From Escherichia phage UE-S1: 64,000 nucleotides of DNA. The position numbers and the translations under genes are program-made. The stretch lies in sequence record ON568341.1; one strand, 5' to 3'. Position 1 is the first letter of the stretch. The number at the start of each line of letters is the position of its first letter. Positions 32,297 to 51,960 of the stretch are shown piece after piece. Below the pieces are notes generated by a model. It was not told where the DNA came from and made no database searches. It saw only the letters and a list, made by a program, of their open reading frames with translations.

Positions 32297-32352
32297 TATA
32301 AATAATATCATACTGAAAAACGAATATAACATCTTTAAGGAGATATATAATG
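32297..32352 (+). repeat. Conserved late-gene leader element, copy B, including TATAAATA
   Basis: ctataaataatatcatactgaaaaacgaatataacatctttaaggagatatataATG. TATAAATA at 32297-32304. Confidence 0.6.
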
Positions 32353-33525
32353 TCACAACTACTAAATGAATCCAAATGGGTAGCAGTAAAAGAGAAACTA
32401 GTTGAAGGTCTACAGGGTACTCGTAAGTCTGTAATGGAAACTGTTCTTGATAACCATCGTAAAGTTATGCTAACTGAATCCGCAACTTCTGGTGCAACTA
32501 CCGCTGGTAATATCGCTACACTAAACAAAGTGATTCTACCAATTATGCGTCGTGTAATGCCAACTGTTATTGCTAACGAAATTATCGGTGTTCAGCCTAT
32601 GACTGGCCCAGTCGGTCAAATTCACACCCTACGTGTACAATATGCTGATAATGCACCTGGTGTTATCGCTGGTGAAGAAATGCTTTCTCCATACAAAATC
32701 GCTAAATCCTACTCTGGTGAACTAAATTCTGATAACAGCAATCCTCAAGCTGCTCCTACTAGCCAACTAGAAGGTACTATGGGTCGTCGCGTTAACATCC
32801 GTATTCTACGTGAAACAGTTGAAGCGAAATCTCGTCGTCTATCTGCACGTTGGACTGTTGAATCTGCACAAGATGCTCAATCCCAACATGGTGTTGACGT
32901 TGAAGCAGAACTAATGGCTGCAATCGCTCAAGAAGTTACCGTAGAAATCGACCAAGAGCTACTAAGCCGTCTACGTGCACTACCTGGTGCTGCTGCTGTA
33001 ACTTATGACCAATCTAAAGTTACTGGTGTTGCAACCTTCGTTGGTGATGAGCACGCTGCTCTAGCAACTCTAATTAACCGTCAAGCAAACGAAGTTGCTC
33101 GTCGTACTAAGCGTGGTGCTGCAAACTGGGCTGTTGTTTCCCCAACTGCACTAACCATTCTACAATCTGCTACTACTTCTAGCTTTGCACGTACCACTGA
33201 AGGTACTTTCGAAGCACCAACTAACGTTAAGTTTGTAGGTACTCTAAATAGCACTATGCGTATTTTTGTTGATACTTATGCAAGTGATTCAGAAGATATT
33301 CTAATTGGTTATAAAGGTAATGCAGAAACTGATGCTGGTGTGTTCTATTGCCCATACATCCCACTAATGGCATCCGGTACTGTAATGGACCCTAACACTG
33401 GTGAATTGGTCACAACCTTCCTCACTCGTTATGGTTACGTACAACTCACTGACTCAACCAGTAGCTTGGGTAATGCTGCGGATTACTACAGCAAAATCGC
33501 TATCAAAAACGTTACTTTCATGTAA
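32350..33525 (+). CDS. gp23: Major capsid protein gp23
   Basis: IIGVQPMTGPVGQIHTLRVQY parallels T4 ICGVQPMNSPTGQVFALRAVY. VEAKSRRLSARWTVESAQD parallels IEAKSRQLKAAYSIELAQD. Only 391 aa against 521 in T4. Confidence 0.9.
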   Translation: MSQLLNESKWVAVKEKLVEGLQGTRKSVMETVLDNHRKVMLTESATSGATTAGNIATLNKVILPIMRRVMPTVIANEIIGVQPMTGPVGQIHTLRVQYADNAPGVIAGEEMLSPYKIAKSYSGELNSDNSNPQAAPTSQLEGTMGRRVNIRILRETVEAKSRRLSARWTVESAQDAQSQHGVDVEAELMAAIAQEVTVEIDQELLSRLRALPGAAAVTYDQSKVTGVATFVGDEHAALATLINRQANEVARRTKRGAANWAVVSPTALTILQSATTSSFARTTEGTFEAPTNVKFVGTLNSTMRIFVDTYASDSEDILIGYKGNAETDAGVFYCPYIPLMASGTVMDPNTGELVTTFLTRYGYVQLTDSTSSLGNAADYYSKIAIKNVTFM

Positions 33526-33616: not shown

Positions 33617-33645
33617 TTGACAGTACTTAACAATTGTAGTATCAT
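33617..33645 (+). promoter_or_regulatory. Sigma70-like promoter (TTGACA-N17-TATCAT)
   Basis: Canonical -35 TTGACA at 33617-33622 and -10 TATCAT at 33640-33645. Confidence 0.45.
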
Positions 33646-33679
33646 ACGTGTAAATAAAGAAAAGAACTCGGAGAAAATC

Positions 33680-35275
33680 GTGTTAGAAGAAATCAAGAAG
33701 TTTTTATCAGAGAAAAATGTTCGTGGTGTTAAATCTGCTCTGCAAGCAAAATCTGTATACATTGAATTCCTGCGAGAGATGTTTGGTGATATCGATCTTA
33801 ATGAAATGATTTATATGGTATTGAATGATATTACTTCAGTGCCGAATGCTGAATGTGGTGACAAAGCTAAGTTTATAAGTATTACCGAAGGATATTCTTA
33901 CAAGTGCAATAAACCATTTCAAGGAAAAGGAAAATGCCTTATCTGTTGCTCCGCAGTTGCTAGGAAACGTAAAGAAACTTACAAAGAAAAAACTGGTTAT
34001 GATAACCCGGCACAGAATCCAGAAATTCAAAAGAAAATAGGGTATACCAATGAACAACGTTATGGCACTCGTATTGCTCAACAATCTGAACAAGTAAAGC
34101 AGAAATCAATAGAAACTAATATTAAAAAGTATGGTGTTGTTCATCCATCACAGTTGGAAAGTAATAAACAGCAACGTTTACAAACGGTACAAGAAAAGTA
34201 TGGTATCAATAATGTATGGCAACTTAATAAAGGTCTTAGTGCACGTTATGAACAGTTTAAAACACGATTTGAACAGGATGGTAAATTTACTCTTTTAAGT
34301 GATGAATCCCATTATGATAATAGCAATGACGCAACTCATGCAATCATGCACTGGAAATGTAATGAATGTGGTAATGAGTTTGATAAAGTTGCTCTTTGCT
34401 TACGCTGCCCTAAGTGTGAACCATATTCATCCAGTACTGAAGAAGTAAATCTTTATAATTACATTACCTCTATCTATAGTGGTGTGGTTATTCAAAACAG
34501 CCGCAACATCATCAAAGGTAATGAGATTGATATCTTCATCCCAGAATTGAAACTTGGTATTGAGTTCAATGGTGAGTATTGGCATCGTGATGAAGTTCGT
34601 GGTAAAAACTATCATCAATCCAAATACTTCAAAATGAAGGAAGCAGGATACAAACTTATCACTATCTATAGTAATGAATGGTCAAATAAAACTGAAATTG
34701 TTAAGAATCGTTTGAAAAGTTTGATTAGTGTGGATAGTAAAATCTATGCTCGTAAGTGTGAAGTTAGATTGGTTGCCCATGAAGAATGTGATAAATTTTT
34801 GTATGAACATCATATTCAAGGACCATGCCAATCATCAATCAAACTTGGACTTTACTATAATGATGATTTGGTTGCTTTGATGACATTTGGTGCACCACGA
34901 TTTAACAAGCAGTATGAATATGAATTACTGCGTTATTGTTCTAAAGGAACAGTTGTTGGGGGTGCATCGAAACTGTTAAAACATTTTGAACGTATGTATC
35001 TTCCTAAATCTCTTCTTTCATACGCCGATATGAACTGGAGTACTGGTAATTTGTATGAAAAAATTGGTTTTACTTTAGAAGAAGTAACTCAACCTGGTTA
35101 TTTTTACTATGATAGAAAAAACGAAGTTGTTTATTCTCGCCATCAATGCCAAAAACAAAAACTTATTAAAAAATATAATTTTGATAGTTCTATGACAGAG
35201 AAGGAAATGACAAAAGAATTAGGATACTTTAGAATCTATGATTGTGGTAACTTAGTTTATAAAAAGATTTACTAA
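33680..35275 (+). CDS. Free-standing homing-endonuclease-like protein: zinc ribbons, tandem KYG repeats, PD-(D/E)xK (Vsr/DUF559-like) core and GNAT-like C-terminal domain
   Basis: Cys pairs CLICC and CLRCPKCE. Four tandem repeats of about 20 aa. Nuclease core EIDIFIPELKLGIEFNGEYWH. C-terminal VVGGASKLL ... LYEKIGF resembles acetyltransferase motifs. Start set to GTG 33680 after GGAG. Sits after gp23, the position of segD in T4. Confidence 0.5.
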   Translation: MLEEIKKFLSEKNVRGVKSALQAKSVYIEFLREMFGDIDLNEMIYMVLNDITSVPNAECGDKAKFISITEGYSYKCNKPFQGKGKCLICCSAVARKRKETYKEKTGYDNPAQNPEIQKKIGYTNEQRYGTRIAQQSEQVKQKSIETNIKKYGVVHPSQLESNKQQRLQTVQEKYGINNVWQLNKGLSARYEQFKTRFEQDGKFTLLSDESHYDNSNDATHAIMHWKCNECGNEFDKVALCLRCPKCEPYSSSTEEVNLYNYITSIYSGVVIQNSRNIIKGNEIDIFIPELKLGIEFNGEYWHRDEVRGKNYHQSKYFKMKEAGYKLITIYSNEWSNKTEIVKNRLKSLISVDSKIYARKCEVRLVAHEECDKFLYEHHIQGPCQSSIKLGLYYNDDLVALMTFGAPRFNKQYEYELLRYCSKGTVVGGASKLLKHFERMYLPKSLLSYADMNWSTGNLYEKIGFTLEEVTQPGYFYYDRKNEVVYSRHQCQKQKLIKKYNFDSSMTEKEMTKELGYFRIYDCGNLVYKKIY

Positions 35276-38259: not shown

Positions 38260-38562
38260 ATGGCTAAATCTAAAAAAGAAGTTAAAGTAGAAATTCGTGA
38301 TCTAAACGATGAACAACGTAAACGTCTCGGTGATGCACTTAATAACATTGTTGTACAACTTACTTTCATTGATGATACCAAAGCATCCTTGTCAGATTTT
38401 GTTTCTAGTATTTCAGATGAACTAGGTATCAATGCATCTGATATCAAGCAAGCTGCACAGCGTATGTACAAAGGTGATTACTTTGATAAACAAAGCAAAC
38501 TAGATAACATCGAAACTATCCTAAGTGTTACTAATAATCTACCACAAGCAGATGATTACTAA
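38260..38562 (+). CDS. Small protein, possibly DsbA-like dsDNA-binding late-transcription factor
   Basis: 100 aa. MAKSKKE start and DELGINASDIKQAAQRMYKGDYFD weakly parallel T4 DsbA DELGVDGKMFNRLLALYHKDNRD. Confidence 0.3.
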   Translation: MAKSKKEVKVEIRDLNDEQRKRLGDALNNIVVQLTFIDDTKASLSDFVSSISDELGINASDIKQAAQRMYKGDYFDKQSKLDNIETILSVTNNLPQADDY

Positions 38563-42201: not shown

Positions 42202-42933
42202 ATGGATCTACGCAACGTATTACGTGACCTTGTAAACACAACCAGTGGTATTGACTTCTCTTGTATTGCTGTAAGTAGTGAAGACCGTGGTGAAGGGCAA
42301 CGTGTATATCTAGAAGCGTACACAGATGACCGAACTCTAGTGATGCGAGCATATACTAAAGAGGATGTTCCTGAAGTTCAGGGTCGCTTTGGGTTAGGAA
42401 ATCTAGGTCTTCTTCAGGGTCTAATGTCTCTAAAAACATACAGTACTGAAGGAACAACAATCACATCAAATGTCAAAGACGGTTCTGTAAAAAGTCTAGC
42501 ATTTAAATCTGAAGATGCAAGCACTACATTTATGGTACAAGCTGAAAAACTTATTCCAGTACAACCACGTTTTCATGAACAACCATATGACGTACAGGTT
42601 ATTCCTAGTGCAGCAAAAGTTCAAGAACTAAAGAGTTTTTCTGGTGTATTTAAATCATTCAGTTCTCTCGTAACTCCGTATACTGATGGTGACACACTAT
42701 ACTTTCACGTTGGTGAGAAAAACAAAAGCAACCACGTTGGTTCACTAGCTTTTTCTAAAACTGATGGAGAATTGGGACTTGGATTTGGATATAATATTGA
42801 TCGAGTACTTCAAGCACTATCTCGTGTCTCTAATGCTGAATCTGTATCACTTGGTATCACAAAAACTGGTATGTTAAATGTCACACTAGATACTGGAATT
42901 GCTGTATACAAATTTTATGTAACTGGTTGCTAA
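42202..42933 (+). CDS. Putative sliding clamp (gp45-like)
   Basis: 243 aa. LVNTTSGIDFS and LGNLGLLQGLMSL weakly parallel T4 gp45 LKNFATINSGIML and LNGFLGILSLV. Size matches. Confidence 0.4.
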   Translation: MDLRNVLRDLVNTTSGIDFSCIAVSSEDRGEGQRVYLEAYTDDRTLVMRAYTKEDVPEVQGRFGLGNLGLLQGLMSLKTYSTEGTTITSNVKDGSVKSLAFKSEDASTTFMVQAEKLIPVQPRFHEQPYDVQVIPSAAKVQELKSFSGVFKSFSSLVTPYTDGDTLYFHVGEKNKSNHVGSLAFSKTDGELGLGFGYNIDRVLQALSRVSNAESVSLGITKTGMLNVTLDTGIAVYKFYVTGC

Positions 42934-43206: not shown

Positions 43207-43506
43207 ATGAAAATTAAAATGATTAATGATTACGTTCTTGTTCGTCAAATTGAAGCACAGAATAAAAGTTCTGGTGGTATTATTCTAGGGAATGTTGAGC
43301 CACCATGCATTGGTATGGTAATTTCCGTTGGTCCAGGTAAAGTTCTACCGAACGGACAACTAGCAGAGCATGATATTAAAGAAGGTGATATGGTTGTATT
43401 TGGACGTTCATCTTTGAACACTCCCCTAACTGAAGATCTTGGTGGTGGAGAAGACACATACTATGTAATGAAAATCGAAGAGATTTTTGGTAAGAAAAAT
43501 GGCTAA
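43207..43506 (+). CDS. GroES-like co-chaperonin (functional analogue of T4 gp31)
   Basis: DYVLVRQIEAQNKSSGGIIL ... GMVISVGPG ... IKEGDMVVFG matches the Cpn10 pattern. Start ATG 43207 after GGAGGA. Confidence 0.6.
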   Translation: MKIKMINDYVLVRQIEAQNKSSGGIILGNVEPPCIGMVISVGPGKVLPNGQLAEHDIKEGDMVVFGRSSLNTPLTEDLGGGEDTYYVMKIEEIFGKKNG

Positions 43507-44224
43507 AAATAAATTTATACCATTTTGGATGATCCCTGCTCACTGGGGACTTTCTGGTAAGGCAAAAGAAATAGCCAAAGCATATTACTACAATGATGAT
43601 TATGAAGCTGATATGAAGATTGCAGAATTGACATATCTAACTCCATATGAAGTTGAAGTAGCACAATTGGATATCAAAAAGAAATATGGTGTAATAGAAG
43701 AGTTAGAATATCTAATTGCTATACTAGATGTAGAATTGAAATATTCCAAAATTACTCGTGAACAGTATGATGTTAAAGTTCTTGATGCAAAATTGAGTAC
43801 TGGTGCAATCACTGAAAAAGAATATGATATGGAAATCATCGAGCTAATGCCAGATGGTGATGAAAAAAGACTAAAGGCTATTGAATTTGCATATCGTTAT
43901 GATGAAATCACACAAAGTGAATATTCTAAGGAAATATATACACTTCGAAAAGAGCCTTGGATTGATTTGAATGTGGTTCTTGACCCTGAAACAAATGAAG
44001 TTGAGTTTGTGTTTGATTATAATGAATATTTCTGGAAAAAACTGAAAGCGGAAGGTCATCCAGGTAATGACGAAGAAGAAATTATCGATAATTTTGTTAG
44101 AGACTTAGGTCGCAAACTTGCTACAGATGATTTCAGTGATGATTATGACGCAAAGTTGGTGAGTGTGAACGAAGGATTAGACAAGCTACCTGGTTTACCT
44201 GAAGGATTTCGTTCATATAGATAA
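43499..44224 (+). CDS. Hypothetical protein with internal ITxxEY repeats
   Basis: ORF start ATG 43499 (MAKNK) overlapping the GroES-like stop. Followed by a bidirectional terminator. Confidence 0.6.
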   Translation: MAKNKFIPFWMIPAHWGLSGKAKEIAKAYYYNDDYEADMKIAELTYLTPYEVEVAQLDIKKKYGVIEELEYLIAILDVELKYSKITREQYDVKVLDAKLSTGAITEKEYDMEIIELMPDGDEKRLKAIEFAYRYDEITQSEYSKEIYTLRKEPWIDLNVVLDPETNEVEFVFDYNEYFWKKLKAEGHPGNDEEEIIDNFVRDLGRKLATDDFSDDYDAKLVSVNEGLDKLPGLPEGFRSYR

Positions 44225-44231
44225 AATATAA

Positions 44232-44256
44232 AAAGGAGAGCGTGTGCTCTCCTTTT
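44232..44256. terminator. Bidirectional terminator between convergent genes
   Basis: GGAGAGC-gtgt-GCTCTCC flanked by an A-run and a T-run. Confidence 0.65.
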
Positions 44257-44269
44257 CTTTTGTAATATG

Positions 44270-44959
44270 TTAAACCAATGCTGGAAGATATTGGAATAGT
44301 TTAATACCGAAATCCCCTGCTGCATCAGCGGCCTGTGAACGTAGATAAACTTCAGTGACCCCATCTTTAGCAAGTAGTGGAACACCAGTTAGATCATCAA
44401 TTAGTAGGCGACCTTCTTCATATTCAGTACTTGGAACGCCTTGTGGTGATTTTAGATCTTTGTTAAAAACACTAGCACGTTCAACTAGGAATGTGATAAC
44501 AGACGCATCATCAAGACTAACTTTACCAGCACTAATAACACCATCTGGTGCGTTGGTGAAACCAGTAACTGGAAACACTTCACTACCATTTCCTGCAATG
44601 TTGGATGTTGCAATAACAACTGCACGTTGTTGTACAACATCTACGATGCGTTTTACGTTAGTTTGTGCCGCATAGGATGCATTGTAATCTGATTCTAGTG
44701 ATTCTAGAACGAAAGCAGAACCATCAACACGCTTGATACCTTTATCATTTAGGTATGCTAGAATTTCTTCTGGGATATCAGTGTTTAGAAAACGTTGTAA
44801 ACCTACATAAGAGGAAACTGCTCCTGTTACAAGAACGTTCACGTCACCAAGTTTACTAATAGCAATAGATGCTAGGGCGTTAGTACCACAAAAGTAACCT
44901 AGAATACGCTCAAATGAATACCCATTGATACGTTCAAAAGAAGTATTAGTATTTGACAT
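44270..44959 (-). CDS. Ala/Val/Thr-rich structural-type protein, paralogue B
   Basis: 229 aa. Shares QQRAVVIATS and ERASVFNKDLKSP blocks with the adjacent 199-aa protein. Confidence 0.7.
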   Translation of the reverse strand: MSNTNTSFERINGYSFERILGYFCGTNALASIAISKLGDVNVLVTGAVSSYVGLQRFLNTDIPEEILAYLNDKGIKRVDGSAFVLESLESDYNASYAAQTNVKRIVDVVQQRAVVIATSNIAGNGSEVFPVTGFTNAPDGVISAGKVSLDDASVITFLVERASVFNKDLKSPQGVPSTEYEEGRLLIDDLTGVPLLAKDGVTEVYLRSQAADAAGDFGIKLFQYLPALV

Positions 44960-44974
44960 AATATTACCTCTCTA

Positions 44975-45574
44975 TTATAGTTGAACTGGAAGAGCAGCAC
45001 GTACTTTAATAGCTACAGCAGTAGATGCACCTGCATCACCAACACCATCAGTTCCTTGACTTACGAAAGTTTTAGTACGAAAAACTTTAGCTTGTGCAAT
45101 AGATTTAGCTAGGTCAACAGTTGGATCAACTGGAGCAGGACATGCAGAACCTGGACGAACTTCTTGTTTATTAAATACGTCTTGACGTTCACAGATGAAA
45201 GTCAATGCAACAGAGTTAGCACCACCTTTAACATCAGTACCGCTAGTACCAAATGCAACTACGTTTGGGTTAGCATTTTTAAAATCTTCAGGAATAACAA
45301 CTTCTGCATCAAGAGCAAGTAGTGAAGTCGTTACAAGAACAGCACGTTGCTGTAGTAGTTGAGTAACCATGAATAGGTTATATTGTGCATTGCTTAGTGC
45401 AGTTTGATATGCATCAGCTTGAGCATCAGAACCATCGGACACAACTTTAGTAGTACCGATTTCAACATCAGTTGGTAGGTCGATTACGATGGTTACAAAA
45501 CCGTTGTTGCCACCCCACCATTCACGTGCAACACCAGACATACCATAGTTACGGTTAAAAGAATTAAGACTCAT
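44975..45574 (-). CDS. Ala/Val/Thr-rich structural-type protein, paralogue A
   Basis: 199 aa. QQRAVLVTTS and ERQDVFNKQEVRP blocks. Tandem with paralogue B. Confidence 0.7.
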   Translation of the reverse strand: MSLNSFNRNYGMSGVAREWWGGNNGFVTIVIDLPTDVEIGTTKVVSDGSDAQADAYQTALSNAQYNLFMVTQLLQQRAVLVTTSLLALDAEVVIPEDFKNANPNVVAFGTSGTDVKGGANSVALTFICERQDVFNKQEVRPGSACPAPVDPTVDLAKSIAQAKVFRTKTFVSQGTDGVGDAGASTAVAIKVRAALPVQL

Positions 45575-45699
45575 GAAAATCTCCTTGTCGAATTTTGTGC
45601 AGGTTCATCCTGCTTAAAGTTATTTATCAAAAAATATTCCTAGCATTTAAATTTACTGGAATAATTAATGAATTTCTATGATATTATTTATCAAAAATG

Positions 45700-51960
<6,261 letters not shown>

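Follow-up and report, generated by a model that had tools for sequence, protein, structure and literature searches.

Two adjacent genes on the minus strand of Escherichia phage UE-S1, here called A and B, code for an ancient duplicate pair of proteins that are among the most abundant in the particles of Rak2-like phages, kept together and in one order throughout a clade of jumbo phages, and we give about an even chance to the explanation that they are accessory capsid proteins, of the decoration or cement kind, on the T=28 shell of these viruses. That the two genes exist as a pair, that they are paralogous and that their products are major components of the virion was already published in 2013, and in this respect the discovery is modest; the present analysis adds the rejection of the tail tube assignment, the description of the fold, the ordered conservation of the pair across the clade and the anatomy of the late operon. 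All positions refer to the window, that is the whole stretch of 64,000 nt of sequence record ON568341.1 that was analysed.

A paralogous gene pair retained in one order

A first-pass annotation, made from the letters alone, had described A and B as tandem paralogs with a composition typical of major virion proteins, and the reading frames that it gave for them are exact (Table 1). The relationship between the two proteins was borne out by formal pairwise alignment, in which BLASTP found a significant similarity (35% identity across 80 aa, E=3e-9), and by profile-profile comparison with hhalign of 28 A-type against 43 B-type sequences, which yielded a probability of 98.7% and E=2.1e-16 for 185 aligned columns, pairing residues 4-198 of A with residues 6-223 of B around an insertion of ~29 residues in B. 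The sequence blocks said to be shared do occur in both proteins, as QQRAVLVTTS and ERQDVFNK in A and as QQRAVVIATS and ERASVFNK in B, but the quoted pattern was wrong at one residue (V/I). The compositional claim also held: alanine, valine, threonine, glycine and serine together make up 47% of A and 43% of B, close to the 44.5% found in the major capsid protein, while in the replication proteins encoded nearby their share is 24-33%. A and B are relatively hydrophobic, with GRAVY values similar to that of the capsid protein, and their content of lysine and arginine is low (7.5-7.9%).

Table 1. Features of the A/B region, with positions counted from the first nucleotide of the window
Feature	Position	Strand	Details
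Gene A	44975..45574	(-)	ORF; 199 aa, 21.0 kDa, pI 4.8; first in the putative operon
Gene B	44270..44959	(-)	ORF; 229 aa, 24.5 kDa, pI 4.55; second in the putative operon
A-B spacer	44960..44974	(-)	15 nt; carries the B ribosome-binding site GAGAGG; read directly
Intrinsic terminator, bidirectional	44230..44257	both	Between B and the convergent gene 43487-44224(+)
Proximal T4-type late-promoter-like motif, GATAAATAA	45620..45628	(-)	53 nt upstream of the A start codon
Distal late-promoter-like motif, GATAAATAATATCATA	45684..45692	(-)	117 nt from the A ATG; second copy of the GATAAATAA-type motif
Leader hairpin, GCAGG-loop-CCTGC	45599..45613	(-)	In the mRNA leader, just 3' of the proximal promoter motif
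Shine-Dalgarno sequence AAGGAG, strong	45581..45586	(-)	7 nt upstream of the A start; AGGAGATTT invariant in the alignment

Both proteins are assignable to the RaK2 gp106w/gp107w family (phrog_9326, 'virion structural protein'), whose profile matches A from residue 1 to 199 at E=2.6e-86 and B from residue 4 to 229 at E=1e-83. Orthologs of A are RaK2 gp107w, phAPEC6 gp210, PBECO4 gp504, 121Q 618 and CBB_271, and those of B are RaK2 gp106w, phAPEC6 gp211, PBECO4 gp505, 121Q 617 and CBB_270; the members of the family in GAP32 are 265 and 264. PBECO4, 121Q and phAPEC6 form part of the genus Asteriusvirus, Rak2-like jumbo myophages of ~350 kb, and identity to the orthologs from this genus is 95-99.5% for A and 91-96.5% for B, compared with 66-68% for both proteins to those of RaK2. 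At the DNA level, the region is 93.6% identical to Escherichia phage ph0011 and ~90.6% identical to PBECO4, 121Q and phAPEC6; judged by its sequence, the window is that of an Asteriusvirus-type, Rak2-like jumbo coliphage. Throughout the family, the two genes have the same tandem order and the same position on the opposite strand, between the RNaseH gene and a GroES-linked gene, and the family is likewise annotated as 'virion structural protein', leaving no material difference from A and B.

In the phage collection, A and B were present in an identical set of 73 phage records, all from jumbo phages, and in every record having either gene (73/73) they formed an A→B tandem in the same synteny. 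The arrangement of an A-type followed by a B-type gene was found in PBECO4, phAPEC6, RaK2, CBB, 19 IMG/VR loci and metagenomic contigs, and a family HMM run over each fetched locus detected a tandem pair every time, with the A-type gene ahead; even two distant metagenomic contigs (L023 and L028) keep this order. The spacing between the genes is 13-48 nt in all related loci, the RNaseH gene lies divergently upstream and a gene for a short acidic protein (ORF105-like) convergently downstream, and GroES (or GroEL) and terminase genes are found near the pair. That both paralogs are always retained, and always in the same order, suggests that their functions are non-redundant and probably exerted jointly.

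Beyond these loci, a word-indexed search of 5.8 billion proteins returned 38 clusters for A and 65 for B, nearly all of them unnamed, and an HMM search run exhaustively over 1.84 billion representatives gave 42 matches, one of which was spurious. This match, a bacterial protein of 1054 aa (P0144; E=3.7e-5 with the family profile), had at first looked as if lectin and Ig domains were fused to the A/B core, but was dropped, with the family match sitting inside its repeats; it is a repetitive He_PIG/Laminin_G protein with a signal peptide, whose gene neighbours an RHS gene on a contig of 5 kb that is not from a phage.

Organisation of a putative late operon

The signals around the two genes are those expected of a self-contained late operon with high output, arranged head-to-head with a gene of an earlier class, with the late timing read from the promoter motifs. 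The spacer between A and B was found on reading to contain neither a promoter nor a terminator, indicating that the two genes are co-transcribed. Downstream of B, the bidirectional terminator has a stem of 12 bp with T-runs on both strands, and folds with a dG of -18.2 kcal/mol (z=-9.0), a stability that 0 of 200 shuffled sequences reached. The first-pass annotation had placed the pair between strong terminators and among replication genes. The former applies to the 3' end, but on the 5' side we find promoters and a small leader hairpin instead; the latter is correct in that the genes for DNA polymerase and RNaseH are nearby, but so are the large terminase gene, the GroES gene and one for a virion protein. 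The capsid gene is located 11 kb upstream of the pair, and the head genes 11-17 kb upstream.

Two motifs resembling T4-type late promoters precede A. Within the annotated part of the window there are 24 copies of the heptamer ATAAATA, 13 of them in intergenic DNA, which accounts for 6.3% of the bases. All but one of the 13 point at the start of a gene on the same strand within 150 nt; two precede A, and among the other genes preceded in this way are the scaffold and capsid genes as well as genes for a baseplate and a fibre protein. In the CBB paper, this class of motif was described before structural genes of CBB and GAP32, compared with the T4 late promoter TATAAATA and proposed to be a late promoter. 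Around the proximal motif, TTGATAAATAAC is invariant in ten relatives from several genera. The distal motif is conserved in closer relatives only, and has 15 nt (ATAAATAATATCATA) in common with the motif that precedes the capsid gene by 52 nt (32297-32312 of the window). A scan for sigma-70 promoters was uninformative, with 8 sites found and 9.5 expected.

The leader, from TTGATAAATAAC to AAGGAGATTT, is nearly invariant across genera. Its hairpin of 5-6 bp is of modest folding stability when taken alone (z=-1.8) and is conserved in ten relatives; in RaK2 it reads GTAAG/CTTAC, amounting to two compensatory pair changes from GCAGG/CCTGC, and in Eneladus/Mimas-type phages the stem is longer. In codon usage, A ranks third and B sixth among 49 genes by similarity to the capsid gene (0.76 and 0.63, respectively, with a median of 0.475). 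The RNaseH gene, on the other strand, is served by an extended -10 element (TGTGCTATAAT, 45716-45726), and its actual start is probably at 45789.

Orthologs in purified virions

The suspicion of the first-pass annotation that A and B are major virion proteins is supported by mass spectrometry of purified virions of RaK2, phAPEC6 and CBB, evidence that pertains to the orthologs of A and B in these phages; the GAP32 homologs are cited as structural. For RaK2 (PMC3622015, 2013), ORF106w and ORF107w were reported as 'two distantly related' proteins, abundant on virion gels, where gp106w and gp107w are among the few labelled SDS-PAGE bands and migrate at their predicted masses. Table S3 of the same paper gives a peptide coverage of 55.4% for gp106w and 53.5% for gp107w under the label 'putative tail protein', and its authors suggested that one of the two might be the tail tube. 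In virions of phAPEC6, coverage, which reflects copy number only roughly, was 69.8% for gp210 and 69.9% for gp211, with the capsid protein at 74.9% and the sheath at 68%. In CBB, CBB_270 ranked first in coverage among the 55 virion proteins (91.3%), with 56.4% for CBB_271 and 68% for the capsid protein.

The phage group possesses a gp21-type protease, which trims the major capsid protein. On indirect evidence, A and B appear not to be processed by this prohead protease, given that the RaK2 bands run at the predicted masses and that the coverage of CBB_270 implies the presence of its N-terminal region in the virion. The reported value of 91.32% equals, in our reconstruction, the sum of all tryptic peptides of ≥6 aa. 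The part not covered would then be exactly five short peptides with 19 residues between them, which implies that residues 5-20 are present; of the solutions that are mathematically possible, this is the most parsimonious.

Predicted fold

AlphaFold2, given the alignments of the family, modelled both monomers with confidence, A with a pLDDT of 85.7 and a pTM of 0.82, and B with a pLDDT of 81.2 and a pTM of 0.79. In both models, an unstructured N-terminal arm of ~20 residues is followed by a beta strand, a helix of 26 residues, a mixed sheet with a second helix, and a C-terminal strand, which makes the predicted fold an alpha/beta, ferredoxin-like one. The insertion in B (about residues 47-75) is modelled as two extra helices, H51-58 and H63-73, ahead of the long helix. 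No part of A is more conserved than the N-terminal arm: of the 39 invariant positions in the protein, 13 fall within residues 1-26, the very segment that is unstructured in the model. An invariant segment that is not folded in the monomer is what one would expect of a docking element, and lambda gpD docks to its capsid through an N-terminal arm.

Searches for related folds and families gave little beyond the family itself. With the B model, Foldseek found nothing in the full PDB at E≤0.001, and the matches from a structure search of BFVD were all either members of the family or phage proteins that are uncharacterised. Searches with A and B of Pfam, NCBIfam, PDB sequences and PDB profiles were empty. 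Neither protein matches the known decoration families T4 Soc, T4 Hoc/Ig-like or lambda gpD/HDPD in sequence or fold, nor the HK97 fold of capsid and vertex proteins. For phAPEC6 gp211, the label 'Hemagglutinin repeat-containing protein' found no support in Pfam or NCBIfam at E≤1, and we have discarded it.

Discussion

Rak2-like phages have T=28 capsids of ~135 nm, among the largest known for phages. [quoted passage not shown] For one or more of these densities, A and B are the strongest candidates, as they are the most strongly represented of the unassigned virion proteins in three proteomes and are moreover acidic, capsid-like in composition and apparently unprocessed. Their apparent lack of cleavage fits proteins that are added to the outside of a matured shell, which in UE-S1 is built from a major capsid protein of the gp23 family (Pfam Gp23, E=5.5e-90). 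It weighs against decoration that the fold matches no known decoration protein and that the genes lie outside the head-gene cluster. Other small proteins with high coverage in phAPEC6 virions (gp347, gp306c and gp253) compete for the same densities. In addition, a gel band of 21-24 kDa becomes visible at a few hundred copies, so that abundance alone would also be compatible with a location in the tail or inside the head. Of the roles that the first-pass annotation had considered, decoration nonetheless fits best.

From these observations, we infer a course of events in which A and B would be transcribed as one late operon from the T4-type motifs, with the hairpin leader, the strong ribosome-binding site and the capsid-like codon usage providing for high output, and with transcription ending at the strong bidirectional terminator. 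The proteins would then be added onto the mature T=28 shell without trimming by the prohead protease, where they may act jointly as a hetero-oligomer, their N-terminal arms docking on the major capsid protein or between the A and B proteins themselves. In this way they could account for the elongated two-fold network of phAPEC6 and 121Q, for the density at the hexamer centres, or for both. [quoted passage not shown]

To our knowledge, no accessory capsid proteins of Rak2-like phages have been identified so far. If A and B indeed give rise to the capsid densities, they would explain how very large shells are stabilised and could serve as a display scaffold like those of Soc and Hoc, with up to ~1600 sites. 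The cement lattice of the more specific version would be a Soc-like cage that arose from a duplicated gene, conserved throughout the Rak2-like clade and in related phages from marine and soil sources.

Among known systems, T4 Soc is the one that A and B probably resemble in function, with a putative binding to a gp23-type shell. Like Soc, they are small, seemingly expressed late and at a high level, uncleaved as far as the virion data indicate, and on this analogy would be added from outside; Soc is near-stoichiometric and forms a cage along the capsomer borders, near the quasi-two-fold and quasi-three-fold axes. Soc, however, is the ~9 kDa product of a single gene, in contrast to two paralogs of 21-24 kDa, and is unrelated to them in sequence and fold. 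With lambda gpD and P74-26 gp87, A and B may share a conserved, disordered N-terminal arm that takes on order once bound to the capsid. These proteins, however, are beta-tulips that form trimers at three-fold sites, whereas A and B are predicted to be alpha/beta and ferredoxin-like and have no match to Pfam HDPD, and the phAPEC6 density runs across two-fold axes. The network of minor capsid proteins in phiKZ offers a parallel in that many accessory proteins stabilise the very large shell of a jumbo phage; there, however, many of them sit on the inner side of the shell and some are proteolysed, and the phAPEC6 proteins have no sequence similarity to the inner-body proteins of phiKZ. The cryo-EM paper on phiKp24 was set aside as a model, as this phage belongs to another group and forms its capsid from a single large capsid protein.

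The place of A and B could also be on the surface of the tail or its appendages, as rings decorating the sheath or as anchors of the 'hairy' fibres found on both capsid and tail in phAPEC6, 121Q and CBB. There are vacancies for such proteins: the tail of phAPEC6 has a decoration protein at two levels and rings of fibres along the sheath, none of them assigned, its fibres are anchored at every capsid hexamer by an equally unassigned protein, and the composition of the CBB whiskers has not been established. Sites on the tail are few, however, with rings of 6-12, which is hard to square with a coverage on a par with that of the capsid protein in three independent proteomes, and the pair is universal in the clade, while hairs are variable, present in CBB and apparently absent from GAP32. 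We therefore regard this location as unlikely. An anchor at the hexamer centres of the capsid is a version of it that merges with the accessory capsid proteins proposed above.

That A and B are internal head proteins, packaged with the DNA and possibly ejected, for example as part of a radiation-sensitive 'inner body', seems to us improbable. The inner-body proteins of phiKZ are abundant and form paralogous families, and like the internal proteins of T4 they are processed by the prohead protease. Both phAPEC6 and 121Q possess an inner body whose proteins are not named, and high abundance would be compatible with this location; the acidity of A and B (pI 4.5-4.8), their scarcity of lysine and arginine and their apparent lack of cleavage speak against it. 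The authors of the phAPEC6 study, for their part, preferred RCC1-like proteins for the organisation of the DNA.

The idea that one or both proteins form the tail tube, suggested by the RaK2 authors in 2013 and echoed in the 'tube-like' of the first-pass annotation, had in its favour that they are abundant, roughly of tube size (21-24 kDa) and predicted to be rich in beta structure, and that no tube protein of RaK2 had been recognised when Table S3 was labelled, but we reject it as very improbable on the grounds of fold, family and gene position. A and B match no tube family of Pfam, PHROG or NCBIfam, their models lack the beta-sandwich fold of tube and Hcp proteins, and phAPEC6 gp210 and gp211 are encoded ~80 kb from the sheath gene gp277c, with a coverage of ~70% compared with 9-30% for the proteins of tube families in this phage, values of 9% and 16% among them. 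The present analysis thus removes a tail-tube label more than a decade old, and also the unsupported 'hemagglutinin repeat' annotation in phAPEC6. T4 gp19 and the tube proteins of phrog_4542 do resemble A and B in size and abundance, which was the source of the 2013 proposal, but their fold is different and there is no sequence match. Dedicated tube genes are found beside the sheath gene instead: just downstream of gp277c, phAPEC6 gp275c, gp274c and gp273c match phrog_4542 and phrog_13438 (E=5e-86, 8e-80 and 8.5e-227, respectively), and are weakly linked to the general tube family phrog_45.

Genes and putative promoters flanking the paralogous pair

The conserved convergent neighbour of A and B, the tandem paralogous virion genes of 199 and 229 codons, adjoins the pair even in distant contigs; it shares a 20-nt overlap with the GroES gene. 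Its product is acidic (pI 4.6, Asp+Glu 22%) and contains helical repeats; a role in the assembly of A and B is conceivable. The RaK2 ortholog, gp105, was found by mass spectrometry with 21.7% coverage; in the virion proteomes of phAPEC6 and CBB the ortholog was not detected.

On the other side of the pair, the true start of the RNaseH/FEN gene is probably ATG 45789, rather than 45732; the protein read from there has 328 aa, matching the RaK2 and metagenomic homologs. The extended -10 promoter-like element TGTGCTATAAT upstream is kept in relatives in the form TGTG(C/G)TATA. The divergent region, 214 nt long, thus appears to carry both a rightward promoter of early/middle type and leftward promoters of late type.

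In the most distant relatives of the pair, the metagenomic loci L024-L026 (Logan SRR17165171 and others), the second gene encodes 290-300 aa and its product has a Gly/Thr/Val-rich insertion of ~90 residues ahead of the last strand, in which the motif GG(T/S)(G/D)Y occurs twice. The insertion lies at a site that in A and B is a low-confidence loop of variable length. A GroEL-type chaperonin is also encoded nearby in these phages.

Further features of the window

Features in the window (all on the + strand)
Feature	Position	Strand	Remarks
Endonuclease gene, homing/HNH-type	33617-35275	+	552 aa; phrog_3339, E=4e-132; Pfam DUF7487
100-aa ORF	38260-38562	+	no assigned function
243-aa protein gene	42202-42933	+	ortholog of phAPEC6 gp215c
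Convergent neighbour gene	43487-44224	+	245 aa; phrog_13349 'virion structural protein'
Extended -10 promoter-like element TGTGCTATAAT	45716-45726	+	upstream of RNaseH/FEN gene
Large terminase gene	47965-50625	+	886 aa

Located directly 3' of the major capsid gene (32350-33525), the endonuclease gene is a probable mobile insertion within the head module. The 100-aa ORF, whose product had no match in a Pfam search, has the codon usage closest to that of the capsid gene in the window (0.777, the same value as for the capsid gene against itself), which suggests very high expression.

The 243-aa protein, encoded ~550 nt 3' of the DNA polymerase gene with two short ORFs intervening, is clamp-like in size and gene position; sequence searches of Pfam, NCBIfam and PDB gave no match. 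Its ortholog gp215c was detected in phAPEC6 virions (26% coverage). The CBB authors reported no gp45 clamp homolog in the Rak2-like clade.

The large terminase is considerably longer than the 545-aa proteins of PBECO4 and phAPEC6. The RaK2 terminase gene is about as long as the one in the window. Judged by Pfam matches (LAGLIDADG_3, E=5e-11; Hom_end, 3.5e-6; Intein_splicing, weak), the ~340 additional residues make up an intein that includes a LAGLIDADG homing endonuclease and is positioned before the Terminase_6N domain.
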